Origin: an uncultured Candidatus Saccharibacteria bacterium
GTDB taxonomy: Bacteria; Patescibacteriota; Minisyncoccia; Phycocordibacterales; WO2-35-19
DNA length: 64,000 bases
Assembly (NCBI GenBank): GCA_964589445.1
Contig: CAZPQX010000001.1
Location: 28,600 to 92,599, forward strand
Direction of reading: 5' to 3'
A model generated the notes under the pieces. It had not been told where the DNA came from and ran no database searches. It saw only the letters and a list, made by a program, of their open reading frames with translations. The translations under genes and the position numbers were made by a program. Position 1 is the stretch's first letter. Each line of letters begins with the position of its first letter. Positions 848 to 58,872 of this stretch are shown here, piece after piece.

Positions 848-1318
848 TTATGGATTTATATAGAGAGATTCTTCCATTTTGTCTATTTCTCTAAGCCTCC
901 TTATGTGTCTACTCTCTTCTGAAAATTCTGTCTTGAGCCAGAGCTCGACTGCTTCCTTGGCCTCCTCTTCAGAAATAAACCGGGCTCCTAGGGAAAGTAC
1001 ATTTGAGTCGTTGTGTTCTCGTGAAAGTTTTATTATTTCTTTATTGCCTCCGTAGTAAACCACTGCGCGCACATTGGGGAATCTGTTTGCGACTATCGCC
1101 TCTCCTTGGCCGCTTCCACCAAGGATAATGCCTTTGGAGTTTTCTGCATCCTTAAATACCTCCACTCCCACCTTTTCTACTTCGAGGGGGTAGTCGTCTC
1201 CTTCTTTAAATTCTTTTGGCCCCAAATCCACCGCCTCAAACCCGAGAGTTTTGACAAACTCCACTAAAGTTTCCTTGAGTTTAAACCCGGCATGATCTGA
1301 TGCAAAAAATATTTTCAT
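848..1318 (-). CDS. rpiB: ribose-5-phosphate isomerase B
   Basis: 156 aa; 'MKIFFASDHAGFKLKE' N-terminus and 'GGSGQGEAIVANR' match the RpiB/LacAB family. Confidence 0.85.
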   Translation of the reverse strand: MKIFFASDHAGFKLKETLVEFVKTLGFEAVDLGPKEFKEGDDYPLEVEKVGVEVFKDAENSKGIILGGSGQGEAIVANRFPNVRAVVYYGGNKEIIKLSREHNDSNVLSLGARFISEEEAKEAVELWLKTEFSEESRHIRRLREIDKMEESLYINP

Positions 1319-1330
1319 AAAAGTTAACTT

Positions 1331-2389
1331 TTACAAATACTTACCTATCGCAAGTACGTGCTTCACCAGTGTCGCTGTGTACCCCATCTCGTTGTCATAC
1401 CAAGCGCACACTTTGACCAAGTTACCGCTGACGACACGAGTGAGCCCAAGGTCGGCGATAGAGCCATAGAGTGAGCCGATGATGTCAGAAGAGACTATAG
1501 GGTCGTTGGTGACAGTGAAGATACCTTCCCATCTTTTCTCCTTGGCTGCTTCGGTGAGTATTTGGTTTATTTCTTCAACACTAGTGTCTCTCTTGGCGAT
1601 AAGGGTGATGTCAGCGATAGACCCAGCGACTACAGGCACTCTCATAGAGATGCCATCAAACTTACCTTCAAGGTCGGGGATGGCTTTGGTGACTGCGATA
1701 GCGGCTCCAGTAGAAGTGGGTAATATATTTTGAGCCCCAGCTCTACCCTCTTTAAAATCTTTTTTGTTTGGACCATCGACTATCGACTGGCTAGCTGTGT
1801 ATCCGTGCACTGTGTTCAAAATAGCCTTTTCGATACCTATCTTTTCGTGGAGTATCTGCATGAGTGGGCTGCCTGCATTGGTAGTACAAGATGCATTTGA
1901 AGAAACCTTTGACTTCTCTAGTTTTTCGTCATTTATACCCATGAGCACAGTTGCCTGTGTCTCGTCAGCGGGCGCGTCTTTGGCTGGAGCTGTGATGACC
2001 ACTCTCTTTGCCCCAGCTTCGACATGCACTTTTGCCTTTTCAAAAGAAGTGAAGGCACCTGTCGACTCTATCACCACATCAATATTTAAATCCTTCCAAG
2101 GCAAGAGGTTTGCTTCCTTTTCAGAGAGAAAAATTATTTCTCTCTGACCCCGCGAAGCTTCAGCGGAGTGGGGTCCAATTATTATCGCTTTCTTATCGTC
2201 CCTTACAGAAACAGGAAACTGAGCCGGCCCATAAGCAGTATCGTATTTGATAAGGTAAGCGATATTTTCGATGTCACCTAAGTCATTGATAGCTACCACT
2301 TCTATTTCTGGGTTTTTTTGAGAAAGTTTGAGAAATGCTCTACCTATCCTTCCTGCGCCGTTTATTGCCACTCTAATTTTTTTATCCAT
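1331..2389 (-). CDS. gap: glyceraldehyde-3-phosphate dehydrogenase
   Basis: 352 aa; 'INGAGRIGR' NAD-binding motif and 'ASCTTN' catalytic-Cys motif. Confidence 0.95.
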   Translation of the reverse strand: MDKKIRVAINGAGRIGRAFLKLSQKNPEIEVVAINDLGDIENIAYLIKYDTAYGPAQFPVSVRDDKKAIIIGPHSAEASRGQREIIFLSEKEANLLPWKDLNIDVVIESTGAFTSFEKAKVHVEAGAKRVVITAPAKDAPADETQATVLMGINDEKLEKSKVSSNASCTTNAGSPLMQILHEKIGIEKAILNTVHGYTASQSIVDGPNKKDFKEGRAGAQNILPTSTGAAIAVTKAIPDLEGKFDGISMRVPVVAGSIADITLIAKRDTSVEEINQILTEAAKEKRWEGIFTVTNDPIVSSDIIGSLYGSIADLGLTRVVSGNLVKVCAWYDNEMGYTATLVKHVLAIGKYL

Positions 2390-2734: not shown

Positions 2735-2767
2735 TCTGACCACTATAATAAATATTCCTAAAATTTT
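2735..2767 (-). promoter_or_regulatory. sigma70-like promoter (TTGACA-17-TATAGT) on the minus strand
   Basis: rc of 2735-2767 reads TTGACAAAATTTTAGGAATATTTATTATAGTGG. Confidence 0.4.
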
Positions 2768-2849
2768 GTCAAGTGTTTTTAAAAAAATCACATAAACAGA
2801 AAACCCGCTGCGGACAGCAGAGGACTCTCTGCTACCGCACGCGGGCTAT

Positions 2850-18043: not shown

Positions 18044-21000
18044 TTATTTTTTACTTCCCCATTCGTATAACATTATAGAGAAGTCCACCGAGTTCACTTT
18101 ATTGTCTTTGTTGATGTCTACGCAAGGATTTTTGAATGGTTGTAAGGTCTGCCAAAATGAAAGTAGTATTGAAAAGTCTACAGAGTTTACTTTTCTGTCT
18201 GCGTTGAAGTCCGAACCATTACAAGCATTTGGGGAAATAGTTGGGATGATAGGGGTAGCCACAGAGCCACCACCACTTCCTCCCCCACCACCTCCACTTC
18301 CACCACCATTAGATCCCCCACTGCCAGCAACCGCACTAAATGATCGGGAAGCGCTTGAACTTTCTATACCATAATACACCTTCACTTTAAAGAAGTAGTC
18401 CCCTGTACTTGGCACGTCAGCACTCAAGGTGGTATCGAAGTCTTCTCCTGGGTTTATAAATTTAGCAGCTAGTGAGTAGAAGACGTCATCCCCGCCTCCA
18501 CAAGTATTATTTACATTAGAGACAACACACCACTCATATTGATACTCTGCACCATTTGAACCTTCGTTTGTTATGGTGACATCTGCGGCTACCACAGGGA
18601 CAGTGTTATCAGAGATACCCCTAATGATAACTTGTGGTGGGTTTGATGTGACCGTCCAGTAGTCATTGCCTGGCAAAGTTTTACCTGATTCAACTGTGGC
18701 TGAGAACACACTTTCCCATGTGCCAGCTGCAGCGTCGTTTGCTGTAGTGTATGAATACGTGTAAGTACCTACACCAGTCCTTGTCATTGCTACATTATTT
18801 ACTACTACATTACGACTTGGATCATAGATAGTGACAGTAGGTGTGCTGAGTGAGTCAGTAAGTGTGCCGTCGTAGATAGTGGTGACTGTAGCTAAGTAAT
18901 TAGACCCAGCTGAGATCGTGCCGAAATCAGAAGTTGTGACTGTCCATGGTGACTGAGAAGAAAGTGTGAGGGATGTGAGTGTACGTGTTGAAGCATTCCA
19001 AACATCAGTCACTAATGTACCAAATGATGTGAGTGTGCGGCTTCCAGAGCTCCAAACGCTAGCTGGGATGCCGGTAATGCTTGAAAGTAGCTGGGAGACT
19101 ATAGAAGATGATGCAGTGTTGATGACAGCTGCGATTGATGTAGAAGCACTTAGGACTTTTGAATCAGTATTGGCATTTACTGCAGATGTGATACCTGAAG
19201 TTTGTGCATTTGTATTAGCATTTATGTTTGCAGCAAGAGATGTGGATGCTGTTAGTACAGCAGAGTTTGTGTTGGAGTTAACTGCATTTTGAGAGTTTGT
19301 CACCGCCGCTCCGAGCGAAGTTGATGCGCTCAAGACTTGGGAGTTTGTGTTGCTGTTGATATTGGCCTGTGCCGAAGTGATAGCAGCAGCTATAGAGGTT
19401 GAAGCTGTGTTTGTGTTGGCGTTTACTGCAGATGTGATGCCTGAAGTTTCGCTGTCTGTATTTGCGTTAATCTCAGATACGATCGATGACGAAGCGGTTT
19501 GGAGGTTACCGAGTGTAGCGAGTGATCCAGAGTCGAGATTAGCATCGGTGAGGCGGCGGGTGGCATAGCTCCAAACATCAGCAGCAGTGATTGAACCACC
19601 GGAGGTAATGGTCCTCGTACCATATGACCAGACGTCAGCGACTAATGTACCGAAGGAATCAAGCGTTCTCCCTCCATAGCTCCAAACGTTTGCTGGGATG
19701 CTTGTGATACTTCCAAGTACTTGAGAGACGATCGATGACGATGCCGTGTTGATGAGAGCCCCAATAGAAGTGGAGGCGCTTAGGACTCTTGAGTCAGTAT
19801 TTGCGTTTACGATGTCCACGACTGAGGTTGAGGCGTTGTTAACTCTAGTATTGGTGTTGTTATTAATACTTGTCTCGCTATTTGAAACTGCTGCTGCAAT
19901 GGATGTTGAAGCAGTTAGGACAGCTGAGTTGGTGTTTGAATTCACGAGAGCCACAACCGAAGAAGATGCATTACTTATCCTTGTGTCTGTGTTTGCATTA
20001 ACTGCACTTGTGATACCTGATGTCTGAGCATTTGTATTTGCATTTATGTTTGCAGCAAGAGACGTTGAAGCGGTTAGGATGGCAGAGTTGGTATTTGAGT
20101 TAACCTGCGAAGTGATGGATGACGAAGCTGTCTGTAGGTTTCCAAGCGTCGCCAAGGAGCCAGAATCCAGGTTTGCGTCGGTGAGGCGGCGTGTGGCAGC
20201 AGACCAAACTCCAGTTGCGGTGTCAGAGACCAGAGTACCAAAGGATGTGAGGGTGCGGCTTCCAGAGCTCCAAACGTTAGCTGGGATACCGGTAATGCTT
20301 GAAAGTAGCTGGGAAACTATAGACGAGGAGGCTGTATTCATAAAGGCTGCAAGAGAAGTTGATGCAGTCAAAACTCTTGAATCAGTGTTAGCGTTCACAG
20401 CAACTTGAGAGTTTGTCACCGCCGCTCCGAGAGAAGTTGATGCGCTCAAGACCTGAGAGTTGGTGTTGGAATTTATATTTGTTTGAGACGCGGTGATCGC
20501 GGCGGCGATACTAGATGAAGCGCTGTTTGTGTTTGCATTTACAGCACTTGTGACACCGGAAGTCTGAGTGTTTGTGTTTGCGTTGATATTTGCAGCGACA
20601 GATGTAGAAGCGGCTAATATAGCAGCGTCAGTGTTTGAGTTGACAGCAGAGGTGATGCCGGATGTTTGAGTGTTTGTATTGCTATTGATTTGCGAAGTGA
20701 TGGATGATGACGCTGTTTGAAGATTTGAGAGAGTTGCGAGAGAGCCCGAGTCGAGGGTAGCATCGCTGAGGCGGCGAGTGGCATAGCTCCAGACATCGGC
20801 CGCAGTCAATGAGCCTCCAGAAGTTATAGTCCTAGTACCATAAGACCATATGTCTGCGACTAGTGTACCGAAGGAATCAAGAGTTCTGCCTCCATAGCTC
20901 CAAACGTTTGCTGGGATAGAGGTGATACTTCCGAGTACTTGAGAGACGATGGAAGATGATGCTGTGTTAATAAGAGCTCCAAGAGAAGTTGAGGCAGTCA

Positions 21001-22771
21001 AAACTCTCGAATCAGTGTTTGAATTCACGAGAGCTACGACTGAAGATGAGGCATTATTAATTCGAGTGTCGGTATTGGAATTAACTGCAGAAGTAATAGA
21101 TGACGTCTGGGTATTCGTGTTTGCATTGATATTTGCAGCGAGAGATGTCGAAGCTGTTAGGATGGCAGCATTGGTATTTGAGTTAACTGTATTTTGTGAG
21201 TTTGTGACTGCCGCTCCAAGCGAAGTTGATGCACTCAAGACCTGAGAGTTGGTGTTGGAATTTATGTTTGCTTGAGAAGCAGTGATAGCCGCTGCAATAG
21301 AGGTTGAGGCATTGTTTGTGTTTGCGTTCACAGCCGATGTGATACCCGAGGTTTTGGAATCTGTATTTGAATTAATCTCAGATACAATTGAAGATGAAGC
21401 TGTTTGAATATTTGAAAGGGTCGCAAGTGAGCCTGTATCGAGGTTTGCATCTGTCAAACGGCGTGTTGCTGCACCCCATACACCAGTTGCAGTATCCGAT
21501 ACGAGTGTACCAAATGATGTGAGTGTACGACTTCCAGAGCTCCAGACGCTAGCTGGTATGCCGGTGATGCTTGAGAGGAGTTGGGATACGATAGATGACG
21601 AAGCGGTGTTGATGAGGGCTCCAAGAGAAGTCGATGCAGTCAAAACTCTTGAGTCAGTATTAGCATTCACAGCAACCTGTGAGTTTGTGACAGCAGCTCC
21701 AAGAGAGGTTGAGGCGCTCAAGACTTGGGAGTTTGTATTTGAGTTTATGTTTGTTTGAGAAGCAGTGATAGCGGCCGCGATACTAGAGGAAGCACTGTTT
21801 GTGTTTGCATTTACAGCACTTGTGACACCGGAAGTCTGAGTGTTTGTGTTTGCGTTGATATTTGCAGCGACAGATGTAGAAGCGGCTAATATAGCAGCGT
21901 CAGTGTTTGAGTTGACAGCAGAGGTGATGCCGGATGTTTGAGTGTTTGTATTGCTATTGATTTGCGAAGTGATGGATGATGACGCTGTTTGAAGATTTGA
22001 GAGAGTTGCGAGAGAGCCCGAGTCGAGATTTGCGTCGGTGAGGCGGCGGGTGGCGGCAGACCATACACCAGTTGCTGTATCGGATACCAATGTACCAAAT
22101 GATGTGAGACTTCGGCTTCCATAACTCCATATATCAGCCACTAAAGTACCGAAAGATGTAAGTGTCCTACCAGAAAAACCCCAAATTGTTGCTGGGAGGG
22201 TTGAAAATAAAGAAGATGAGGCAGTTTGAATTTGCAAATCAGTGTTGGCATTCACGGCACTTGTGATGCCTGAAGTTTCGCTGTCTGTATTGCTATTTAC
22301 CTGTGAGACTACAGATGATGATGCAACCTGAATCAATGAACCGAGTGAAGAAGAAGCGGTTTGCACATCTGAAAGTGAGGCCACTTGGCTTTCAAGAATA
22401 AAACTCTTGTTTTGTTTTATAAGATCAACCCCCGGAGTACCACAAGCTATTTCAGCTGGCCAAGTACCAAGGGTTGAAGAACCAGCAAAGTTGTAATAAT
22501 GCCATCCATTGGACTCCTCGCTCATCGTTACAGCATTAGCAAACTGTATGTTGTTAGGGCTCCATATGCTTATAGTACAGTCAGTAGTTGATGGTGTGTA
22601 ATCGTCGTTGTAAAGAAATTCCCCTATCTGAAATGCTGTGTCTTTAGGATACCTCGCTATAGCCAGAGCCAAAAGTGGAGTAAACAAAAAAATATTTACA
22701 AACAATATACTTAATATTGTCTTTTGAACTAAAAATTTTTTTATTTTTTCTTTATTCACAAAATTAATCAC
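18044..22771 (-). CDS. giant (1575 aa) Ser/Thr/Asn-rich tandem-repeat surface protein with C-terminal dockerin-like domain
   Basis: N-terminal signal/anchor; repeated blocks 'VWSYGSRTLTSFGTLV...RRLTDANLDSGSLATLSNLQTASSSI' and 'NANTNTQTSGITSAVN' occur at least 4 times. The C-terminus 'DFNADRKVNSVDFSILL...DINKDNKVNSVDFSIML' is a duplicated Ca-binding dockerin-type motif, preceded by a Gly-rich linker. Confidence 0.7.
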   Translation of the reverse strand: MINFVNKEKIKKFLVQKTILSILFVNIFLFTPLLALAIARYPKDTAFQIGEFLYNDDYTPSTTDCTISIWSPNNIQFANAVTMSEESNGWHYYNFAGSSTLGTWPAEIACGTPGVDLIKQNKSFILESQVASLSDVQTASSSLGSLIQVASSSVVSQVNSNTDSETSGITSAVNANTDLQIQTASSSLFSTLPATIWGFSGRTLTSFGTLVADIWSYGSRSLTSFGTLVSDTATGVWSAATRRLTDANLDSGSLATLSNLQTASSSITSQINSNTNTQTSGITSAVNSNTDAAILAASTSVAANINANTNTQTSGVTSAVNANTNSASSSIAAAITASQTNINSNTNSQVLSASTSLGAAVTNSQVAVNANTDSRVLTASTSLGALINTASSSIVSQLLSSITGIPASVWSSGSRTLTSFGTLVSDTATGVWGAATRRLTDANLDTGSLATLSNIQTASSSIVSEINSNTDSKTSGITSAVNANTNNASTSIAAAITASQANINSNTNSQVLSASTSLGAAVTNSQNTVNSNTNAAILTASTSLAANINANTNTQTSSITSAVNSNTDTRINNASSSVVALVNSNTDSRVLTASTSLGALINTASSSIVSQVLGSITSIPANVWSYGGRTLDSFGTLVADIWSYGTRTITSGGSLTAADVWSYATRRLSDATLDSGSLATLSNLQTASSSITSQINSNTNTQTSGITSAVNSNTDAAILAASTSVAANINANTNTQTSGVTSAVNANTNSASSSIAAAITASQTNINSNTNSQVLSASTSLGAAVTNSQVAVNANTDSRVLTASTSLAAFMNTASSSIVSQLLSSITGIPANVWSSGSRTLTSFGTLVSDTATGVWSAATRRLTDANLDSGSLATLGNLQTASSSITSQVNSNTNSAILTASTSLAANINANTNAQTSGITSAVNANTDTRISNASSSVVALVNSNTNSAVLTASTSIAAAVSNSETSINNNTNTRVNNASTSVVDIVNANTDSRVLSASTSIGALINTASSSIVSQVLGSITSIPANVWSYGGRTLDSFGTLVADVWSYGTRTITSGGSITAADVWSYATRRLTDANLDSGSLATLGNLQTASSSIVSEINANTDSETSGITSAVNANTNTASTSIAAAITSAQANINSNTNSQVLSASTSLGAAVTNSQNAVNSNTNSAVLTASTSLAANINANTNAQTSGITSAVNANTDSKVLSASTSIAAVINTASSSIVSQLLSSITGIPASVWSSGSRTLTSFGTLVTDVWNASTRTLTSLTLSSQSPWTVTTSDFGTISAGSNYLATVTTIYDGTLTDSLSTPTVTIYDPSRNVVVNNVAMTRTGVGTYTYSYTTANDAAAGTWESVFSATVESGKTLPGNDYWTVTSNPPQVIIRGISDNTVPVVAADVTITNEGSNGAEYQYEWCVVSNVNNTCGGGDDVFYSLAAKFINPGEDFDTTLSADVPSTGDYFFKVKVYYGIESSSASRSFSAVAGSGGSNGGGSGGGGGGSGGGSVATPIIPTISPNACNGSDFNADRKVNSVDFSILLSFWQTLQPFKNPCVDINKDNKVNSVDFSIMLYEWGSKK
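18950..22200. repeat. near-identical DNA tandem repeats (~1.27 kb period) inside the giant gene
   Basis: Antisense ORFs 20614-20796 and 21886-22122 encode identical C-terminal peptides ('...HPASPLLSTQTLTLLY'), offset by 1272 bp; long identical DNA blocks are visible by eye. Confidence 0.8.
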
Positions 22772-38776: not shown

Positions 38777-39298
38777 CTACTTATTATTTGGAGTGCCAAA
38801 CATTTGGACGACGAAGACAGCTTCCCTGCCCTTATACATACCAGTTGAAGTAGCTATACCTATCTCTTTATAGCGAGGATTTATGATATTCAAAAAGTGA
38901 CCTCGTGATTTGACCCAAGCAGTATGCACCTCCTCACTATCGGTAAAGTTTACAGCCAAGTTTTCACCTGCATATTCGTACCTATATCCAGCCTGGTCTA
39001 TCCAATACCAAGGTGTCTTCCCATCTGGGCTATTGTGAGCAAAGTAGCCTTTTGAAGCCATGTCGTTGGCCTTCATCTGTGCTGCAAGCTCTAAATCTCT
39101 GTTTACAGTGAGTTTCTCGGCATTATTGAGACTTCGCTCATCATTGGCCAAAGCGACGAGTACAGAGCCATATACAGCCGAAAGAGAGTCTATTACTGCC
39201 CCTCTAAAACCTGAAAACACACTTATACCCACGACAAATGCTGCGATTATCCCTATTCCAATTTTTAGCTTCATAATTTCTTTTTTACCCTTAGTCAT
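38777..39298 (-). CDS. CAP/SCP (PR-1-like) domain secreted protein
   Basis: 173 aa; N-terminal anchor; 'GYFAHNSPDG', 'GENLAVNF', 'HTAWVKSRGHFLNIINPRYKEIGIA' are typical of the CAP superfamily. Confidence 0.75.
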   Translation of the reverse strand: MTKGKKEIMKLKIGIGIIAAFVVGISVFSGFRGAVIDSLSAVYGSVLVALANDERSLNNAEKLTVNRDLELAAQMKANDMASKGYFAHNSPDGKTPWYWIDQAGYRYEYAGENLAVNFTDSEEVHTAWVKSRGHFLNIINPRYKEIGIATSTGMYKGREAVFVVQMFGTPNNK

Positions 39299-39379
39299 TA
39301 AGACCTGAATTTTAACATTTTATATTGTCTAAAACAAAATAAGTCAAATAGCCTTATGTGTAGAGATTAAAAATATAAA

Positions 39380-39650
39380 AAGAAAATGCCCCGGGTGGGA
39401 CATTATGGTGTGGAAAGTCAGAGGCAGCATACGTCTTGCGGAGTAGATGGGAGTGCCACCCCTGACTTCCACCCCTTAAGTATATCACTAAGCCAACCTC
39501 CTGTCAAAGTCAATTTTGATATAAAAAAATGCCCCGGAGATAAACCTCGCGGGACAATATGGTGGAGCCGGGGATGGCAGGAAAGGGTCGTGGACGCCAC
39601 TTTTGGATTGGAGTTGCCACCCCCAAGCTCCATGGAAGAAACCATAGACA
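39380..39650 (+). ncRNA. two tandem, related GC-rich small structured RNA candidates (~110-130 nt each)
   Basis: Each unit starts 'aaaATGCCCCGG', shares 'GGGACAwTATGGTG' and a 3' 'GAGTtGCCACCCC...TCCA' block, and is preceded by a TATAAA -10-like box. Stems co-vary (unit A GGAAAGTCAG/CTGACTTCC vs unit B GGAGC/GCTCC at the equivalent position). Unit B's ATG runs into a stop after 4 codons and the two units are out of frame, which argues against coding. Confidence 0.3.
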
Positions 39651-39851
39651 GAAAATAAGTCAACAAAAAAGACTACCCAAGTGGTAGTCGGGCAGTTGGA
39701 TGGGAAGGTGTGGTGGTACTGAAGTTGCGCGTCCAGCAGCCATGACATGTCCCTCCTACATCCAACCGCTCCATAACAATACAAGATTATAAAAACAAGT
39801 CAATTTTATTGAAATTAAGCCTATAATTTGTTAAATTGTTCTAGTAGTATC

Positions 39852-39924
39852 GCGCGGTTAGCTCAGTTGGTAGAGCGCGTCATTGACGTTGACGATGCCG
39901 GGGGTTCGAATCCCTCACCGCGCA
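39852..39924 (+). tRNA. tRNA-Val (anticodon GAC)
   Basis: Manual fold: acceptor GCGCGGT/ACCGCGC, D-stem GCTC/GAGC, anticodon stem CGTCA/TGACG with loop TTGACGT, T-arm GGGGG-TTCGAAT-CCCTC, discriminator A. Confidence 0.9.
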
Positions 39925-39952
39925 CAAAAATTTGCGTAGCAGAATTTTTGTG

Positions 39953-40100
39953 CGCGGTAGCAAAGCAACTGCTTGCTTTGCGTGGGGATTCGAAAAGATT
40001 TTTGATATTTTTTCAGCAGAAAAAATCAAAAATCTGGGGCTGAGGAAAAATTTTGTGACGACAAAATTTTGAGGTGGCCAAATCCCTCACCGCGCACAGC
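39953..40100 (+). other. degenerate tRNA-Val-like copy / att-type direct repeat of the tRNA 3' end
   Basis: 'gcgcggtagc...gtggggattcgaa' mimics the tRNA 5' half. A ~95-nt insert follows, containing the inverted repeat gatttttgat/atcaaaaatc. Then 'aatccctcaccgcgcaca' exactly repeats the 3' 18 nt of tRNA-Val (39909-39926). Confidence 0.4.
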
Positions 40101-40104
40101 GCAA

Positions 40105-40140
40105 AATTAAAACCGGTTTTGATACCGGTTTTAATTTTTG
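40105..40140. terminator. perfect 15-bp inverted repeat hairpin (aaaattaaaaccggt/accggttttaatttt)
   Basis: Read directly; flanked by A/T runs on both sides, so possibly a bidirectional terminator. Confidence 0.4.
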
Positions 40141-40192
40141 TGCATATACACAAATGCAATATCCCCGCTCTTAATATAGAAGCTAGGCAGTC

Positions 40193-41447: not shown

Positions 41448-42485
41448 ATGGATATTGTTTCCTTTAAAGAAGCATTTGACCCCCTACTTGCCCGCCACCT
41501 TGCGTATAAAACTGACTGCTACAAAAAAATAACCCAGAACCAAGAAATACTAGAAATACTTAGTCATATAAATGAGATAAGCAAAGGAGGCAAAAGACTA
41601 AGGCCTTTTATTATTTATTCAATATACAAAACCCGCAATCCACAATCACAAATAGAAGAAATACTAGATCTTCTTTTAGCTATAGAAATATTTCATATAT
41701 TTTGTCTCGTACATGACGACATTATGGACGAAGCAGACCTGCGCCATGGCAAAAAAACAGTACACAAATATACCGAGGATATATTGAAAGAAAAAAACAG
41801 AATAAACACAAAAAGAGTTTCAGAGGGCCAAGCCATCCTAGTGGGCGATATTTTGTTTAATGCCGTCTATGAGCTTTTGTACAAAGACAGCTGGGCGGGA
41901 GATATGGAAACCAAAAACAAAATAATAAATATTTTTACAGAGCTAGTAGACGAGGTTTGTGTCGGCCAGATGATAGATATAAATATAGTTTCAAAAAAAG
42001 ATTGTAGCCTAGAAGAAATAATGGAAAAAACAAAGCTCAAAACAGCTTACTATTCCTTTGCGAGACCGATACAAATCGGCTTCGCGCTCGTGGGAGAAGA
42101 GCATTCTTTTACAAATGAGTTCGGGGAAAATATAGGCATACTCTTCCAAATACAAGATGATTTGCTCGATATAATCGGCAAACAAGAAGAAACAAATAAA
42201 AATACCCTCTCTGACGTACTCAAAAACCAACACACACTACTCACTGACTACATAAACAATAAAGCAGAAGCACGATATAGAGAATCCCTAAAAAATATAG
42301 AGAATTTAAAAAGAGATGAGATAATAAACCTCTTCGTTCAGTCAGGTGCAACAAATCACGCAAAACAAATCATAGAAGATTATAATAAAAAATGTATTTC
42401 AATAATACAAAATTCTGACATAAGCGAGAGCGACAAAAATATATTCAAATACCTAACTTCCCTCTTACAAAACAGGACAAAATAA
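41448..42485 (+). CDS. polyprenyl diphosphate synthase (GGPP-synthase type)
   Basis: 345 aa; first Asp-rich motif 'LVHDDIMDEADLRHG' and second 'FQIQDDLLDI'. Confidence 0.85.
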   Translation: MDIVSFKEAFDPLLARHLAYKTDCYKKITQNQEILEILSHINEISKGGKRLRPFIIYSIYKTRNPQSQIEEILDLLLAIEIFHIFCLVHDDIMDEADLRHGKKTVHKYTEDILKEKNRINTKRVSEGQAILVGDILFNAVYELLYKDSWAGDMETKNKIINIFTELVDEVCVGQMIDINIVSKKDCSLEEIMEKTKLKTAYYSFARPIQIGFALVGEEHSFTNEFGENIGILFQIQDDLLDIIGKQEETNKNTLSDVLKNQHTLLTDYINNKAEARYRESLKNIENLKRDEIINLFVQSGATNHAKQIIEDYNKKCISIIQNSDISESDKNIFKYLTSLLQNRTK

Positions 42486-43327
42486 TGAAAAAAGACACAA
42501 TAGAACTGGCAAGAAAAATAGAGAAAAAGCACGGCACCAGCTACTACATAGCCACACTTTTTTTGCCTGAAGAAATAAAAAGAGAGGTTTTTGTGCTTTA
42601 CGCATTCGTGAGGACTCCGGACGAATACGTAGACAACCCAAAAGTGGGCGAAGATCCAAAGCAAAAATTGGATGAATGGAAAAAAGAATGGCAAAACACA
42701 TTTGAGACAGGAGTAGGTCAAAACAAAATACTCCTAGCCACAAGGGAAATATTTAAAAAGTACAAAATACCTTTTGAACTTAGCATTGAATTTATAGATT
42801 CAATGATCCAAGACTTAAATATAAACAGATACGAAACATACGATGAGCTGCGACAGTACATGCGAGGTTCTGCAGAGAGCGTGGGGGTCATGCTTACATA
42901 TATATTTGGCTATACTGAGCCGCAGGCTTTCATTTATGCGAGGAAGCTAGGCGAAGCGATGCAGCTCACCAACTTCCTTAGAGACATAAAAGAAGACTAT
43001 TTTGATAGAAATAGGATATATGTGCCAAGAGAGTACATGCAAAAATTTGGCATAACAGAAGAAGATATAAAGAACCAAAATGTGAATCCTGATTTTAGAG
43101 AAATGATGTTTTTCCTAATTGAAAAAGCTCGCGCAATATACAGACAGTCTGATGAGGGCATAAATATGCTCTCTCCCAAAACCCAATTTGCCGTCAGAGC
43201 AGCTTCACGACTCTATGAGAAGATTTTGGATAAAATAGAAAACCAAAATTACAATATTTATAAGCAGAGAGCTAGGACGAACTTTTTAGAAAAAGTGTGG
43301 CTAATATCAAAATCATATGTCAAATAA
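42485..43327 (+). CDS. crtB: phytoene/squalene synthase family (CrtB-like)
   Basis: 280 aa; 'YAFVRTPDEYVDN' and 'LTNFLRDIKEDYFDRNRIYVPRE' are conserved motifs of the family; start overlaps the upstream stop. Confidence 0.8.
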   Translation: MKKDTIELARKIEKKHGTSYYIATLFLPEEIKREVFVLYAFVRTPDEYVDNPKVGEDPKQKLDEWKKEWQNTFETGVGQNKILLATREIFKKYKIPFELSIEFIDSMIQDLNINRYETYDELRQYMRGSAESVGVMLTYIFGYTEPQAFIYARKLGEAMQLTNFLRDIKEDYFDRNRIYVPREYMQKFGITEEDIKNQNVNPDFREMMFFLIEKARAIYRQSDEGINMLSPKTQFAVRAASRLYEKILDKIENQNYNIYKQRARTNFLEKVWLISKSYVK

Positions 43328-44822
43328 AAAAGTAATAATAGTGGGTGCTGGCTTTGGAGGACTTTCTTTGGCCGCCATACTTTCAAAAAAAGGTTTTGAT
43401 GTTTCTATTTATGAAAAAAACGAGCAAATCGGAGGCAGAGCCCGAGTGATAAAAGAAAATGGCTACACATTTGATATGGGGCCTTCTTGGTACATGATGC
43501 CCGATGTTTTTGAAAACTTCTTTGATATTTTAGGAGAAAATATATCTGACTACATTAGCCTCAAAAGACTCTCCCCTTCTTATAGAGTCTACTTCAAGGG
43601 AAATAAAAAGCCGTATGATTTTTATTCTGATCGAGAAAAGAACACCAAGATTTTTGAAGAGATAGAGCCCGGCTCATCAAAAAAGCTTTTTGAATATTTG
43701 GATGAATCCAAGAGACAATACCAAATAGCCAAAAAAGAGTTTATGTACAAAAACTATGATTCTATTTTTGATTTCTTCAACAAGAGAGTCATGAAAGAAG
43801 GCAGGCGGCTCGAGATATTCAACTCGATGAAAAGGATAATAGAAAGAACGGTAAAATCTGAAGTGTTAAGAAAGGTTTTGCAATTTCACATGGTGTTCCT
43901 AGGCACAGCACCCAAAGACGCGCCAGGTATTTATAGACTGATGAACCATGTAGATTTTGATATGGGTGTTTGGTACCCAGACAAAGGTATTTATGAATTA
44001 CCCAAGGCGATAGCCAAAGTAGCAGAAAAATATGGGACCAAAATACATTTAAACTCCCCAGTAAGAAAAATAATAGTTGAGAACAAAAAAGCTACCGGTA
44101 TCGAGCTTGATTCGGGAGAAAAAGTTTTTGCAGATATCGTGGTCTCCAACGCAGACTTACACCATACAGAAGAAAAGCTCTTAGGAGAAGAGTTTAGAGA
44201 GAGAAGTGAAAAGTTTTGGAGTAAAAAGAAGATGGCACCGAGCGCCTTTATCATGTACCTCGGAGTAAACAAAAAGTATGACTCCCTCGCCCACCACACC
44301 CTGCTCTTCTCCAAAGATTGGGATCTAAATTTTGCACAAATATTTGATAAGGCCAAATTCCCCGACGACCCTTCGATATATGTGTGTGCTCCAGGCAAGA
44401 CAGACCCTTCTGTGGCACCCGAAGGCAAAGAAAACATATTTGTTCTCGTCCCCATAGCTTCAGATCTAAAATACACAGAAAAAGAAATCGGCGAATGGAG
44501 AAATAAAGTAATAAAAATACTCGAAGAAAATATGGGGCTCGACGGACTCTCTCAAACAATAGAATACGAAAAAATATATTGCGTCAAAGATTTTGAAAAA
44601 GACTACAACAGCTACAAAGGCAGCGGCCTCGGACTTGCCCACACACTCATGCAGTCTGCATTCTTTAGACCAAACAACGTATCCAAAAAAGTTAAGGATT
44701 TGTATTTCGTAGGTGCTGGCACCAACCCAGGCATCGGCATGCCTATATGTGTCATATCAGCTGAAACTGTCTACAAGAGGATAATGGGCATACAAGACCC
44801 AGAGCCCATAAAGGAAGTCTAA
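43317..44822 (+). CDS. crtI: phytoene desaturase (CrtI family)
   Basis: 501 aa; FAD fold 'KKVIIVGAGFGGLSLAAILSKKGFDVSIYEKNEQIGGRA'; C-terminal 'YFVGAGTNPGIGMP'. Confidence 0.85.
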   Translation: MSNKKVIIVGAGFGGLSLAAILSKKGFDVSIYEKNEQIGGRARVIKENGYTFDMGPSWYMMPDVFENFFDILGENISDYISLKRLSPSYRVYFKGNKKPYDFYSDREKNTKIFEEIEPGSSKKLFEYLDESKRQYQIAKKEFMYKNYDSIFDFFNKRVMKEGRRLEIFNSMKRIIERTVKSEVLRKVLQFHMVFLGTAPKDAPGIYRLMNHVDFDMGVWYPDKGIYELPKAIAKVAEKYGTKIHLNSPVRKIIVENKKATGIELDSGEKVFADIVVSNADLHHTEEKLLGEEFRERSEKFWSKKKMAPSAFIMYLGVNKKYDSLAHHTLLFSKDWDLNFAQIFDKAKFPDDPSIYVCAPGKTDPSVAPEGKENIFVLVPIASDLKYTEKEIGEWRNKVIKILEENMGLDGLSQTIEYEKIYCVKDFEKDYNSYKGSGLGLAHTLMQSAFFRPNNVSKKVKDLYFVGAGTNPGIGMPICVISAETVYKRIMGIQDPEPIKEV

Positions 44823-50016: not shown

Positions 50017-50105
50017 GGAGACGTGTCAGAGTGGTCTAATGTGCCTCTTTGCTAAAGAGGTGTGCCCTTTAAAAGGCACCGACGGTTCGAATCCGTCCGT
50101 CTCCG
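50017..50105 (+). tRNA. tRNA-Ser (anticodon GCT)
   Basis: Manual fold: acceptor GGAGACG/CGTCTCC, anticodon stem CCTCT/AGAGG with loop TTGCTAA, long variable arm 'gtgccctttaaaaggcac', T-arm GACGG-TTCGAAT-CCGTC, discriminator G. Confidence 0.9.
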
Positions 50106-54065: not shown

Positions 54066-54066
54066 A

Positions 54067-57000
54067 ATGGCTCGCTTCACTCGTAAATTTGATGCAAAGG
54101 CATATTGGGCAACGAAGCCTTACTGCACAGTTTGCAAGAACCACAAAGTGAAGGAAGGAAATATATGCTATGAATGCAAACAAGCGGCAATGAAACAAAA
54201 ACGCGAACTCAATAAGAATAACGAGGTAGAGATAGAGTCTTTTGCCTCTGCTGATATTGAGACTCCAGAGCCGCGAAAGAAGCGCGTTTCTAATATTTCA
54301 GCTGAGGCACAAAACAAAGTCGTTCGACTGTTTACATATTTGGAGAAGGCCCTCGCTGTCGATGATTCCATTGTTCGAGATTTTCGTACCAATACAGCAG
54401 CACCTTCTCCATGGTGGCTGGCAGACTATCCTACAGACCTCGAGAACCTAAGTATCCGCCCTTTTGATACTGAGAAAACTCCTGAAGGCGTGCAATCTAC
54501 TTCATGGCTGAAGGTGGAGAAGAAGAACATCAAGGCGGCACCTGAACTGCCAAGCCAACTTGAAGAGTGGATCGATGAGGTTAACCCACTACAAGAGCCG
54601 GTCGCTAAAGAAAAGGTAGATCGAAAAGTCCGCTTTGCTGACGACAAAGATCGTGAGAAGGAATTCAAGAATTTCCGGAAGAATTTTGAGCAAGGAGATG
54701 AAATTCCTGAAATCCTAAAAGATTGGGTGACAATCTTGCCAAACCAGTTGCCAGAATCAATCAGTGTGAAATACGTTCCTGATAATTGGGCGGATCATCC
54801 TGAGCTTGCAAAGTTGCTCGATGGATATACCGAAAATGAATGGAAGCCATGGGCAGAGCAGGTGAAGAAAGTCTATAAAGCAAATCTTCTCTACGATCAG
54901 CTCTATGCGCTCCGATTGCTCCTGAAGAACGAAGGAGATAACTACGAGCTCCTGTTGGGTCATGGTGTTTTGACCTGGCAACATCAGGGAGTAGGCACGA
55001 TCTACACTCCAGTTTTCCTAAGCCCTCTTACGCTCGATTTTGATGCGTCAAAACGAACGATTGAAATCAACCCTGATCCGATGTTCAGGAATTTCGTCGA
55101 GACCTCATCGCTCTACGAGACTGACAATCCGGCTGAAATGGATCTCATCACTTGGGGAGATACCATCAATGCCAATCCGTTCGACTTCTGGCATCTTGAA
55201 ACCCTCAAAGGTCAAGCACAGACGCTAGTCAACTACATCTCACCGGACGGAGAAGATAATTTTACTGACGAAATCGTATCTGCTCCTACTGCATCAAAAA
55301 ATCCAAGTATCTGGAACGCTCCGGTGATCTTTGCTCGAAAGCGAACCAACGATATGTGGTCAAAGTACGCGGCTACGATTCGCAAGGATATCGAGCAGTA
55401 CGGAGTCGAAGCGACTGAATTCATCACTGACCTTGTTGGTGAATATGACGAAACTCCTGTAGGTGCGCGTGATGGATCTGATGGTGAACGCATGGAAAGC
55501 GGTAATGTATCTATTCCGGAATCAGAACTCTACTTCCCATTGCCTTGGAATGACGAGCAGAAGCGAATCGCAGAAAGACTCGATGCAAATTATGGTGTCG
55601 TAGTTAAAGGCCCGCCGGGTACTGGAAAGAGCCACACCATCGCAAACCTGATCTCTCGCTTCTTGGCACAGGGTAAGAGCGTCCTAGTTACTTCACAGAC
55701 GAGTAAGGCCTTAGAGGTGTTGCGTGAAAAGCTTCCTGAAAATATCAGGAGTCTTGCCGTGTCCCAGTTGCAACAGACTGCGAAGCGAGACGATGTGCTC
55801 CAGCAATCGATTGGAGAGATCAGCTCTAATCTCGGCGAGAGAGATACTAAATTTAGTGAAGCACGCGCAGAGAATGTCCGCAGGGATCTTAAGAAAGTCC
55901 GAGAAGAAAAGGCTACCCTCGCAGCAAAGATTCGGCAGTACATCCTTACTGACTCATCGGAGAATTTGGTTATCGATGGTGAAGAAATAAAGCCTATCGA
56001 TGCGGCAAAATTTGTCGATAAGAATAAAGACAACGAGGCTATCGCTTGGTTTACCGACAAGGTTCCATTTGATTCCGCCCCTAACTTTACAGAGGAAGAT
56101 TTGCAGGAAATTTATGACCTCGCCAAGGATGTGGAGGAGGTAGATCGATCTCTTCACAAAGAAGATTTACCTGATCACTCGATCCTCCCTAATGAGGACG
56201 TGGTATTGAGCGCATTCGCTGCGCATCGTGATCTCAGTGCTAAATCTAAGGCCTCTGACGAAGCGTTCAGCAAGGCGAAGATCGATCAAGAGACGCTTGG
56301 TCAGCTATGGGAACTCCTCAGCAGGGCGAAGAAAGTCTTGGGATCTATAAATCAGGATTACGAGCAGGAAATCTTCGACGCCTGTGCGATTAGCCAGAAT
56401 GAGCGTGATAAGTGGTCTTCTATCCTCTCAAAGATTTCAGAAAAGATTCAAATCGTGGCGAAGGGAAAGAACAATGCTATTGGACATGTCATTACCGGAC
56501 AATCCAATCTTTCAACTCACGACCTTCGCGAGGCAGTCGAAGCGTTGTATGCAAAAGCATCAAAGGGAAAACTTGGAACATTTGGCAAGATGCTTCTCCC
56601 TGGAAATGCAAAGCGCATTCTTGAAACCTACAAAGTGGATGGAGCGGGACCTGATAGTCCTGAGAGAGTAGAAATCTTGCGAAATTCGATACTTGTCGAA
56701 GCCGCAGAACGTGAGATCAAGACGCTCCTAGAGCAGGGACTTTCAGCTCTCAAGAACCCTCTCGAAATCGATCTGGATCGTCTTGATCTGGTCAAGCTCG
56801 AGGTATTCGTTGCAAGCATTCAAAGACTTGCAAACTATCATTCTGATTTCGCTGGAATCAATACCTGTTTCAATGAGGTGAAGGAACTCTCTGATCTGTC
56901 GTTCACTAAGAAGACCGACATTGAGACCGCTATCGAACTTACTGCATCGCGTGCAGCCGCATTTGAGCTTAAGAATCTCGAGAAATCATTTACAGAATGG

Positions 57001-58872
57001 GAAGAAACTATCCGATCGTCAGTAAACTTCCGCACTCAGCACGTCATTGTCGATGATCTGGCTCAAGCAATTGTGAAGCGCAACTCTACCGGTTGGAAGA
57101 GTTGCATTGAGGAACTCAATTTGCTCGTTGGAAAGAAGGAGAAAGCGACGAGGCTTAACGAACTATGTGAACAGATCAAAGAACAGGTACCAAATCTGTG
57201 CCGTGAAATCATCGAGCTAGCTGATCAGAAGCAGAAATTTGATTGTCCAGAGAATCTGCTGATCGCATGGAAAGTCGCACGGCTTGAGTCATGGCTCAAT
57301 CATATTCATGACCATGTTGATGTCGATACCTTGCAGAGTGAACTCGAGCGTTTAAACAAAAAGGAATTTGAACTCAATTCTGAACTCGTTACTGTGCTTG
57401 CGTGGCAGCGTCAGATCGACAAGGTTACCAAGCGTCAGCGCGATGCTTTGATGGCTTGGTCCGATGCAATGAAGAAGTATGGTAAAGGCACTGGAAAATA
57501 TGCGAACAAGTGGCTGAATGCCGCACAGCAATCTCTCAAGGAAGCAAAGAATGCAGTTCCTGTCTGGATCATGCCTCTTCACCGCGCAGCTCAAATGTTC
57601 TCAGACCCTACGGCGGGAATGTTCGATGTGGTGATCTTCGATGAGGCAAGTCAATGCGATATTCGTGGTCTCACTATCGGATATCTTGGTAAGAAATTGC
57701 TTGTCGTTGGAGACCCTGACCAGATCAGTCCGGCGGGCATATTCCAAGATCAGGAAAAGACCTTTGAACTTATTTCCCGATTCCTCTTCGATATTCCCCA
57801 TAAGGATAACTTCTCGATCACTTCGAGCCTCTTCGATCTGGCAAAGATTCGTATTCCAAACATGATCCAGCTGAATGAGCACTTTAGATGCGTTCCTGAG
57901 GTCATTGCGTTCAGCAACTACCACATCTACGATTCAAAGCTTAAACCGCTTCGACATCCGCACCCTAAAGGACTCCTGAAGCCTGCTCTTGCTCCTATAT
58001 TGGTCGAGGGAGGCTATCAGAACACCAATAATAAGGTGAACGAACCAGAAGCGAAAGCTGTCGTAGAGAAGCTTGTAGAACTTTTGGAGGATCCGAATTA
58101 CCAGAAGCGTCCTGACGGCCATCTTTGCAGTTTTGGAATTATTTCTCTGCTCGCAGAAGATCAGGCGAAATACATCAAGGATCTAATTTTGAAACACCCG
58201 AAGATCGGAGAGAAAGTGATCGAGGAAAGAAAGATTATTTGTGGTGACGCATACGCATTCCAAGGCGATGAACGCGATGTGATGCTTCTATCCATGGTAA
58301 GAGCCCTTGATCCAAACAAGCCAAATGACACTGTCGCACCTCTTACTGATAAGGGTGCAGCACAACGCTTCAATGTGGCTGCTACTCGCGCACGTGATCA
58401 GGTATTCCTTTTCCACTCAATTCCTTTGGAAGAATTCCGAAATCAGAATGATTGGCGATTCAAGCTACTTAATTGGTACTACGATCCAAAGAAAGAGGAA
58501 CTCAAAGCTGGCCGCGAGATACTTAAGAAAGAATTTGATTCAGGCAGAGCGTCAAACTTCTCATACGAAGTTGGAAATCTCATTATCGATAAAGGTTATC
58601 AGGTTCTGCCTGAATATCCCGTAATCGGCTATCGTATAGATCTTGTAGTTCAAGGTGCTGAAGCTCGTCTTGCAGTTGAATGTGACGGAGACCAGTATCA
58701 TACGCTCGAAAACTGGGAAGAAGATCAAGTCCGCGAGAGACAACTTCGCCGTGCTGGGTGGGAATTCTGGCGTGTGACCGGTAGCTCATTCTATCGCCAC
58801 AAGGAAAAAGCACTCGATAGCCTTTGGAAGAAGCTCGACGAGCTTGGTATCAAGCCGATGATTGATCGCTAG
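54067..58872 (+). CDS. 1601-aa SF1 helicase (AAA_11/AAA_12, Upf1-like) fused to a C-terminal DUF559/Vsr-like endonuclease; N-terminal Cys4 zinc finger
   Basis: Walker A 'GPPGTGKSHTIANLI', Walker B/motif II 'VVIFDEASQCD', motif VI 'VAATRARDQVFLFHS'; C-terminal 'RIDLVVQGAEARLAVECDGDQYH...RRAGWEFWRV' = DUF559; N-terminal 'CTVCKNHKVKEGNICYEC'. Confidence 0.8.
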   Translation: MARFTRKFDAKAYWATKPYCTVCKNHKVKEGNICYECKQAAMKQKRELNKNNEVEIESFASADIETPEPRKKRVSNISAEAQNKVVRLFTYLEKALAVDDSIVRDFRTNTAAPSPWWLADYPTDLENLSIRPFDTEKTPEGVQSTSWLKVEKKNIKAAPELPSQLEEWIDEVNPLQEPVAKEKVDRKVRFADDKDREKEFKNFRKNFEQGDEIPEILKDWVTILPNQLPESISVKYVPDNWADHPELAKLLDGYTENEWKPWAEQVKKVYKANLLYDQLYALRLLLKNEGDNYELLLGHGVLTWQHQGVGTIYTPVFLSPLTLDFDASKRTIEINPDPMFRNFVETSSLYETDNPAEMDLITWGDTINANPFDFWHLETLKGQAQTLVNYISPDGEDNFTDEIVSAPTASKNPSIWNAPVIFARKRTNDMWSKYAATIRKDIEQYGVEATEFITDLVGEYDETPVGARDGSDGERMESGNVSIPESELYFPLPWNDEQKRIAERLDANYGVVVKGPPGTGKSHTIANLISRFLAQGKSVLVTSQTSKALEVLREKLPENIRSLAVSQLQQTAKRDDVLQQSIGEISSNLGERDTKFSEARAENVRRDLKKVREEKATLAAKIRQYILTDSSENLVIDGEEIKPIDAAKFVDKNKDNEAIAWFTDKVPFDSAPNFTEEDLQEIYDLAKDVEEVDRSLHKEDLPDHSILPNEDVVLSAFAAHRDLSAKSKASDEAFSKAKIDQETLGQLWELLSRAKKVLGSINQDYEQEIFDACAISQNERDKWSSILSKISEKIQIVAKGKNNAIGHVITGQSNLSTHDLREAVEALYAKASKGKLGTFGKMLLPGNAKRILETYKVDGAGPDSPERVEILRNSILVEAAEREIKTLLEQGLSALKNPLEIDLDRLDLVKLEVFVASIQRLANYHSDFAGINTCFNEVKELSDLSFTKKTDIETAIELTASRAAAFELKNLEKSFTEWEETIRSSVNFRTQHVIVDDLAQAIVKRNSTGWKSCIEELNLLVGKKEKATRLNELCEQIKEQVPNLCREIIELADQKQKFDCPENLLIAWKVARLESWLNHIHDHVDVDTLQSELERLNKKEFELNSELVTVLAWQRQIDKVTKRQRDALMAWSDAMKKYGKGTGKYANKWLNAAQQSLKEAKNAVPVWIMPLHRAAQMFSDPTAGMFDVVIFDEASQCDIRGLTIGYLGKKLLVVGDPDQISPAGIFQDQEKTFELISRFLFDIPHKDNFSITSSLFDLAKIRIPNMIQLNEHFRCVPEVIAFSNYHIYDSKLKPLRHPHPKGLLKPALAPILVEGGYQNTNNKVNEPEAKAVVEKLVELLEDPNYQKRPDGHLCSFGIISLLAEDQAKYIKDLILKHPKIGEKVIEERKIICGDAYAFQGDERDVMLLSMVRALDPNKPNDTVAPLTDKGAAQRFNVAATRARDQVFLFHSIPLEEFRNQNDWRFKLLNWYYDPKKEELKAGREILKKEFDSGRASNFSYEVGNLIIDKGYQVLPEYPVIGYRIDLVVQGAEARLAVECDGDQYHTLENWEEDQVRERQLRRAGWEFWRVTGSSFYRHKEKALDSLWKKLDELGIKPMIDR

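Follow-up and report, generated by a model that had tools for sequence, protein, structure and literature searches.

We analyzed a 64-kb stretch of DNA (hereafter, the window) and identified, just upstream of a tRNA-Val gene, what is probably a tandem array of three sibling small RNA (sRNA) genes that are transcribed independently from the minus strand and putatively act in trans. The RNAs are presumably expressed. Arrays of the same design occur beside tRNA-Val in two related genomes.

Anatomy of the array

The minus strand of the block at 39377-39803 carries three tandem units, arranged head-to-tail in the order U3, U2, U1, with promoters and terminators recognized as matches to consensus sequences (Table 1). 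All units follow one plan. A predicted sigma-70-like promoter is followed by a GC-rich stem of 14-22 bp, which carries a mostly unpaired, C-rich and G-poor apical region of 22-56 nt. A short, A/U-rich linker (CCAYAAUG-like) then leads to an intrinsic terminator of the form AUGYCY...RGGCAU and a U tract. Counting the arrays of the related contigs L008 and L009, a -35 box (TTGAC(A/T) or TTGATA) stands at the right distance in 11 of 11 units. At the sequence level, the minus strand of each unit, in the window and in the relatives, ends in a GC hairpin with a U tract. A consensus scan of the window region found promoters and terminators for the units on this strand only.

Table 1. Array units and adjoining genes, with positions in the window
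Feature	Position	Strand	Description	Basis
tRNA-Val(GAC)	39852-39925	+	Divergent from the array	ARAGORN and Rfam
U3 promoter (predicted)	39776-39803	-	TTGACT, 16-nt spacer, TATTGT; divergent from the tRNA-Val promoter	Consensus scan
U3 RNA (predicted), ~110 nt	39665-39774	-	Long hairpin 39690-39772, terminator stem-loop 39671-39689, U tract 39665-39670	
U2 promoter (predicted)	39636-39663	-	TTGACT, 16-nt spacer, extended -10 TGgTTTCTT	Read from the sequence
U2 RNA (predicted), ~111 nt	39523-39633	-	Hairpin 39563-39632, linker CCAUAUU, terminator 39530-39556, U tract 39523-39529	
U1 promoter (predicted)	39479-39507	-	TTGACA, 17-nt spacer, TATACT, TG before the -10; 11/12 consensus	Consensus scan
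U1 RNA (predicted), ~101 nt	39377-39477	-	Hairpin 39407-39475, linker, terminator 39385-39404, U tract 39377-39384	Consensus scan (terminator)
CAP-domain protein gene	38777-39298	-	Downstream of U1	Pfam CAP

The U1 promoter is kept in L008 as TTGATA-17-TATACT, and the L009 array has a promoter in the position equivalent to that of U3. The U2 promoter, with its weak -10 element, is the weakest of the three and was missed by a strict consensus scan; the same geometry (TTGACA-16-TGG-TAAGTT / TAGCTT) is found in the homologous units L008_B and L009_c. The consensus scan also picked up the U3 terminator. The U1 hairpin has about 21 bp and a 24-nt apical region (CUCCCAUCUACUCCGCAAGACGUA). The U2 hairpin has 17 bp with one bulge and a C-rich apical region of 35 nt.

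The locus had first been noticed in a sequence-only reading, which described two GC-rich RNA elements on the plus strand beside tRNA-Val, each beginning at ATGCCCCGG and following a TATAAA box. The strings it quoted are all in place: ATGCCCCGG at 39387 and 39530, GGGACAWTATGGTG at 39397-39410 and 39551-39564, and GAGT(T)GCCACCCC at 39451-39462 and 39611-39623. The tRNA gene proved to be tRNA-Val(GAC), and the composition was as described, with a GC content of 0.43-0.57 in the block vs 0.24-0.35 in the flanking spacers (whole window, ~42%). Overlapping open reading frames (ORFs) of 82-98 aa do cross the block on both strands, at 39386-39658 (+), 39418-39666 (-) and 39488-39784 (-). The proposed boundaries were mistaken. 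ATGCCCCGG is the reverse complement of the 3' arm of the terminator (…CCGGGGCAU), not an RNA 5' end, and the TATAAA strings are the complement of the U tail plus the spacer before the next -35 box of the minus-strand genes, not promoter boxes. The count of two units was also short by one, U3. In its minus-strand form, the combined motif GGGGTGGCA-N35-65-CCATAWTGTCCC has exactly 2 occurrences in the 64 kb, with 0.00 expected from 100 shuffles.

The array does not belong to a known RNA family represented in Rfam. The sequence-only reading had found no match by eye, and in a scan with the Rfam 15 covariance models no family reached its gathering threshold on any array unit from the window or L008-L011. 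At E-values up to 10, the best sub-threshold matches on the array were noise. SRP/4.5S RNA, 6S RNA, tmRNA, RNase P and Y RNA were rejected for lack of an Rfam match, and a retron was also considered and rejected. RsaE/RoxS-type sRNAs resemble the array units: they too are ~100 nt long, with a terminator and with unpaired loops rich in C. Unlike these RNAs, an array unit folds as one long hairpin, and the RsaE/RoxS models did not match at E up to 10. We also rejected a leader of the CAP-domain gene. This gene has its own promoter (TTGACT-17-TATAAT), located past the U1 terminator, and the arrays in L008 and L009 precede other genes. Outside the array region, the Rfam matches in the window were a LOOT RNA and tRNA-Ser at 50017. 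The LOOT RNA (RF03000; 62203-62332 (+)), a known motif annotated without a function, scored 78.1 bits (gathering score, 46.4) and fits a Candidate Phyla Radiation (CPR) genome.

Stem pairing and the transcribed strand

The units were compared in a structural alignment, made by hand, that sets 10 of them in one register and omits L009_a, whose architecture is the same but which is not alignable. Its 5' strands follow MAFFT. The 3' strands were positioned according to pairing, and because the alignment was fitted to the predicted fold of each unit, it leans towards structure. With this leaning, 96.6% of 174 stem cells pair, compared with 75.7 +/- 2.0% in shuffles, none of which reached the observed value (0/500; apical loops masked by N). 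Controls with slid partners gave 43-54% pairing, and the covariation score was 0.518 vs 0.203 in shuffles. Pair-counting over the 10 units, which are paralogues or orthologues from three genomes, found changes on both sides in 14 of 23 pairs. An independent count over positions 3-18 found standard pairs in 149 of 153 cells and double changes at 13 of 16 positions. The alignment thus indicates that the predicted stems evolve by compensatory change. The co-variation that the sequence-only reading had pointed out between its two elements is real and much more extensive than it first appeared.

The strand of the structure can be read from its non-Watson-Crick pairs. In the aligned stems, read on the minus strand, G·U pairs occur 21 times and A·C pairs never. 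Neither a DNA palindrome nor a plus-strand RNA would give such an asymmetry, which argues for a structure at the level of a minus-strand RNA. The comparison of U1 with L008_D, its orthologue in L008 (93% identical, with all 6 differences being transitions), points the same way. Two of the differences fall in the stem, a C-to-U change opposite G and a U-to-C change opposite G, and they keep G-C/G·U pairs on the minus strand only. Predicted folds also favor this strand in the window, with z-scores of -4.5 vs -1.7 for U1, -4.1 vs -2.4 for U2 and -6.1 vs -3.3 for U3 (minus vs plus; the U3 minus-strand fold has -51.9 kcal/mol). Across the three genomes, the fold energy was lower in the RNA sense than in the reverse complement for 9 of 11 units, tied for L008_C and higher for L009_b. 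These results, together with the minus-strand promoters and terminators, show that the original plus-strand reading was wrong.

Certain elements are common to the units regardless of their loop sequence. A G-C pair occupies stem position 16 in all 10 units and an A-U pair position 15 in 8 of 10, and the linker and terminator base are common to most units. U1, U2, L008_B, L008_C, L009_d, L008_A and L009_b align in one register with common motifs. U1 and U2 would be paralogues ("sibling sRNAs") of a small family that may also make up the L008 and L009 arrays. Leave-out searches with profile HMMs and covariance models recovered only U2 (and U1, trivially) and missed U3, L009_a and the L008_A/L009_b pair; the HMMs, which used sequence alone, and the covariance model, built from the N-padded hand alignment, were too weak or too unspecific to tie U3 and L009_a to the family. 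U3 and L009_a are array members by position and design and putative homologues of the other units.

Arrays in related genomes and the surroundings of tRNA-Val

The gene after tRNA-Val in the window codes for a 405-aa protein, and homologues with 94, 89, 86 and 81% identity each lie beside an identical tRNA-Val gene. The contigs with the two closest homologues, L008 (94%) and L009 (89%), are the two that reach upstream of tRNA-Val. Both come from Candidatus Zambryskibacteria, and both carry four-unit minus-strand arrays of the same design directly upstream of tRNA-Val. The homologues that the sequence-only reading had called for in related genomes therefore exist, and tRNA-Val(GAC) is the constant array neighbor in all three genomes with an array (the window, L008 and L009).

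Besides U1 and L008_D, U2 and L009_c are orthologues, L008_A has its counterpart in L009_b, and L008_C and L009_d have a common terminator. The apical loop is poorly conserved between U2 and L009_c, a divergence that is unusual for seed regions; in the L008_A/L009_b pair, the loop is the conserved part. The number and identity of units differ between these very close genomes. In the window and L009, the place next to tRNA-Val is taken by a complete first unit (U3 and L009_a). At the corresponding place in L008, between tRNA-Val and L008_A (2738-2790 (-)), no more than a T tract and a weak hairpin are seen, apparently what remains of a lost unit, as if units came and went quickly.

We searched for the array beyond these genomes. 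The window sequence itself recurs only in the Logan assembly L001. Homologues of the CAP-domain protein belong to Candidatus Zambryskibacteria (Parcubacteria/Patescibacteria) and place the genome of the window in this group, and in L002-L005 and L017 there is no array upstream of the CAP gene, so that synteny on this side is absent. A metagenome scan with a 63-mer of tRNA-Val returned one contig, L012, in which the CAP and tRNA-Val genes abut with no array between them. In the more distant Zambryskibacteria L013-L016, the tRNA lies beside the 405-aa gene and no family members were found. Further copies of the units were found neither in the 64-kb window nor in the 14 other loci searched. Scanning GTDB species representatives with GGGGTGGCA-N35-65-CCATAWTGTCCC gave two chance matches (Porphyromonas and Thermoguttaceae), both without the fold. 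On present data, we conclude that the array is an insertion or expansion restricted to a narrow sub-clade.

The 640-nt gap in the more distant L013 holds two other small units with a promoter and terminator each, at 1325-1474 (-) and 1070-1246 (-). One is a candidate long-hairpin sRNA whose sequence is unrelated to the array family, and the other is probably a small protein with a Shine-Dalgarno (SD) site; a small ORF with GAAGGAG-N7-ATG lies at about 1150 of this contig.

The 3' side of tRNA-Val has features of its own. A very stably folding module of ~170 nt (z = -8.7) directly follows the tRNA gene, at 39926-40145 (+). The last part of the module is an 18-nt sequence identical to tRNA-Val from the T loop to the 3' end (AATCCCTCACCGCGCACA), and a terminator follows. 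In the window, pairing of the 5' part of the module (GTGCGCGGT...GGGGATTCGAA) with this copy gives an acceptor/T-arm resembling that of a tRNA, into whose "T loop" two hairpins are inserted. All five close relatives have the module, which comes in two sequence variants (also at L009 2128-2500, L010 96-270, L011 177-450 and L008 2867-3040), and L009 and L011 have 2-3 repeats at a spacing of 170-194 nt. The modules look like serial att-site scars left by small elements integrating at tRNA-Val, or like a tRNA-like RNA that is co-transcribed with the tRNA. L008 and L010 also have extra small genes after tRNA-Val, one of them for a NYN-domain protein.

Farther downstream, genes for a polyprenyl synthetase, a squalene/phytoene synthase and an FAD-dependent amine-oxidase/phytoene-desaturase-like protein stand in a row at 41448-44822 (+). 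These genes form an isoprenoid cluster of the carotenoid or squalene type, which is noteworthy in a reduced CPR genome and is kept beside the 405-aa gene in L008 and L009. The window also contains several very large ORFs of 1,100 to 1,600 aa, including those at 18044-22771 (-) and 54066-58872 (+).

Mode of action and precedents

The predicted sRNAs would most likely act by base-pairing: their apical and terminator loops, C-rich and exposed, would bind G-rich sites in target RNAs, and the long stem would be a stabilizing scaffold that displays the loops. Overall, the apical regions consist of 39% C and 20% G, and seven units reach 40-54% C, compared with 21% C in the window. UCC(A/G) motifs recur in the apical loops and in some terminator loops. 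Our model for this mode is the tandem LhrC sRNAs of Listeria monocytogenes, whose CU-rich loops pair with AG-rich sites (PMC5880928). The array units share with LhrC the display of C-rich single-stranded loops on stem-loops and in the terminator loop. Tandem sibling sRNAs that arise by duplication are a known theme (PMC4211561). Besides LhrC1-4, described clusters include OmrA/B, PrrF1/2 and AbcR1/2 (PMC4211561, PMC5880928). Our array resembles these clusters in having several related sRNA genes of ~100 nt placed head to tail, each with its own promoter and Rho-independent terminator, and in a putative origin by duplication. The array units have no sequence or Rfam relationship to any of the four. 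They also differ from these siblings in their much longer stems (14-22 bp) and in being far more diverged, with stems fully re-written by compensatory changes and unrelated loops; moreover, their number and identity change between very close relatives.

Other observations do not favor a simple LhrC-like model. Duplexes between the loops and the 64-kb window, which represents ~5-10% of the genome, were no better in energy than those of shuffled loops. One strong duplex of the U3 apical region, at 18621-18680, was set aside as irrelevant, since it is antisense to the local mRNA (on the non-coding strand). An SD motif (GGAG/GAGG/AGGA/AAGG at -20 to -3) precedes only 4 of the 48 window ORFs of at least 150 aa, and the genome seems to make rare use of SD sites. 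A mechanism in which C-rich loops block SD sites, as in the target logic of LhrC, is therefore doubtful in this CPR host and probably does not apply as such. The near absence of SD motifs, the lack of a target in the 64 kb and the differences in loop sequence between some orthologues together weaken the simple LhrC-like model.

Because the base-pairing model is weakened in this way, a protein-binding role is a serious alternative, if an unlikely one in our judgment. The same three minus-strand sRNAs would then bind or titrate a protein, such as a poly-C-binding KH-domain protein or another RNA chaperone, and the stem base, with its fixed G-C and A-U pairs, would form the binding platform together with the linker and C-rich loops. 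This would account for the retention of positions 15 and 16 regardless of loop sequence, for the linker and terminator base common to most units, and for loops that are C-rich yet differ in sequence between orthologues. It is also consistent with the absence of SD sites and of any base-pairing target that stands out. However, no gene for a candidate partner adjoins the arrays, and the genes in the far flanks differ across the three genomes. We also saw no short repeated motif like those of CsrB/RsmZ on the transcribed strand; GGA motifs would fall on the wrong strand.

We consider it improbable that the units are instead a fast-evolving cassette array of the CPR lineage, in which a constant scaffold of stem, linker and terminator displays hypervariable C-rich apical loops as programmable guides or decoys. 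The logic would be that of TIGR-Tas systems, whose stem-loop arrays have been described in CPR bacteria and phages (PMC12045711), and the loops might target phages or the episymbiont's host bacterium, or serve an unlinked effector encoded elsewhere. The parallels are tandem hairpins with variable palindromic stems and variable loops in CPR/Patescibacteria, an array content that varies among close relatives while the scaffold is kept, and a U2 loop that reads CCA-N9-UG-N4-CCA-N11-UG. TIGR units are nevertheless short, have no individual promoters or terminators and are cut from one precursor, and their two spacers of 8-12 nt each sit between a box C (CCA) and a box D (UG) motif (PMC12045711). 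As judged by sequence, each unit of our array has its own promoter and terminator, and a single one of the 11 units has the dual box C/D pattern, which arises by chance in 4% of shuffled units. TIGR arrays also adjoin a Nop-domain Tas gene (PMC12045711), and no Nop/Tas domain was found among the nine flanking proteins, three of which have no Pfam match. The one protein neighbor common to the three arrays is the 405-aa protein, which is also encoded in array-less genomes. A search of viral contigs with the linker-terminator motif gave 0 matches, and a BLAST search of the whole region against phages matched the tRNA alone. We therefore rejected a TIGR-Tas array as the identity of the locus. Should the cassette reading nonetheless be true, it would represent a promoter-per-unit alternative to CRISPR- and TIGR-type arrays.

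We regard it as very doubtful that the units are DNA-level palindromes, such as REP/MITE-like repeats or integron attC sites, or a small protein-coding region. They do form tandem imperfect inverted repeats next to a tRNA gene, a typical recombination hotspot that carries att-like duplications on its 3' side. The array, however, lies on the 5' side of the tRNA rather than at the 3' att site, and repeats of this kind would be expected neither to show the excess of G·U over A·C, which indicates selection on RNA, nor to be missing from the rest of the window and the 14 other loci. Integron attC sites were rejected since the R'' (RYYYAAC)/R' (GTTRRRY) core pair is found in no unit on either strand. 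ORFs are open on both strands, but those over the window, L008 and L009 arrays do not correspond to each other, and no ORF is conserved. A public Logan gene call places a 90-aa "protein" over U1 and U2 on the wrong strand (39386-39658 (+); L001 720-992). It has no relative other than itself among 5.8 billion protein clusters, and we rejected protein coding on these grounds. The 90-aa ORF is spurious and is caused by the GC-rich RNA genes. The suggestion of the sequence-only reading that the block holds structured sRNA genes rather than coding sequence is thus supported.

Plus-strand sRNAs that start at ATGCCCCGG, are driven by TATAAA and are possibly co-transcribed with tRNA-Val are scarcely credible: they would share the orientation of the tRNA and would fold, as any hairpin can, but more weakly than the minus strand, with 21 G·U pairs turned into A·C mismatches and a C-to-U change opposite G in U1 vs L008_D that only the minus strand tolerates, and around the units we found neither terminators nor good promoters on the plus strand, whereas each unit has both on the minus strand.

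The model of three minus-strand sibling sRNAs acting in trans thus remains our preferred reading. Full-text searches of the literature on CPR and small RNAs returned only the TIGR-Tas paper as a match. The anatomy of the array itself holds nothing unexpected; Rho-independent-terminated sibling sRNAs are a well-known kind of gene, and it is the lineage-restricted sRNA family that is new. In practical terms, the RNA array misled gene callers, which reported a spurious 90-aa "protein" in its place. The regulatory RNAs of CPR bacteria are almost unexplored, and the locus offers a clean and testable case in which three or four predicted RNAs of ~100 nt with strong promoters evolve by compensatory change beside a tRNA gene, in an organism with a very small genome and seemingly no SD-dependent initiation. 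If expressed, the array RNAs would count as one of the first sibling sRNA families to be described in Patescibacteria, and they would raise the question of what sRNAs with C-rich loops target when there is no SD site.
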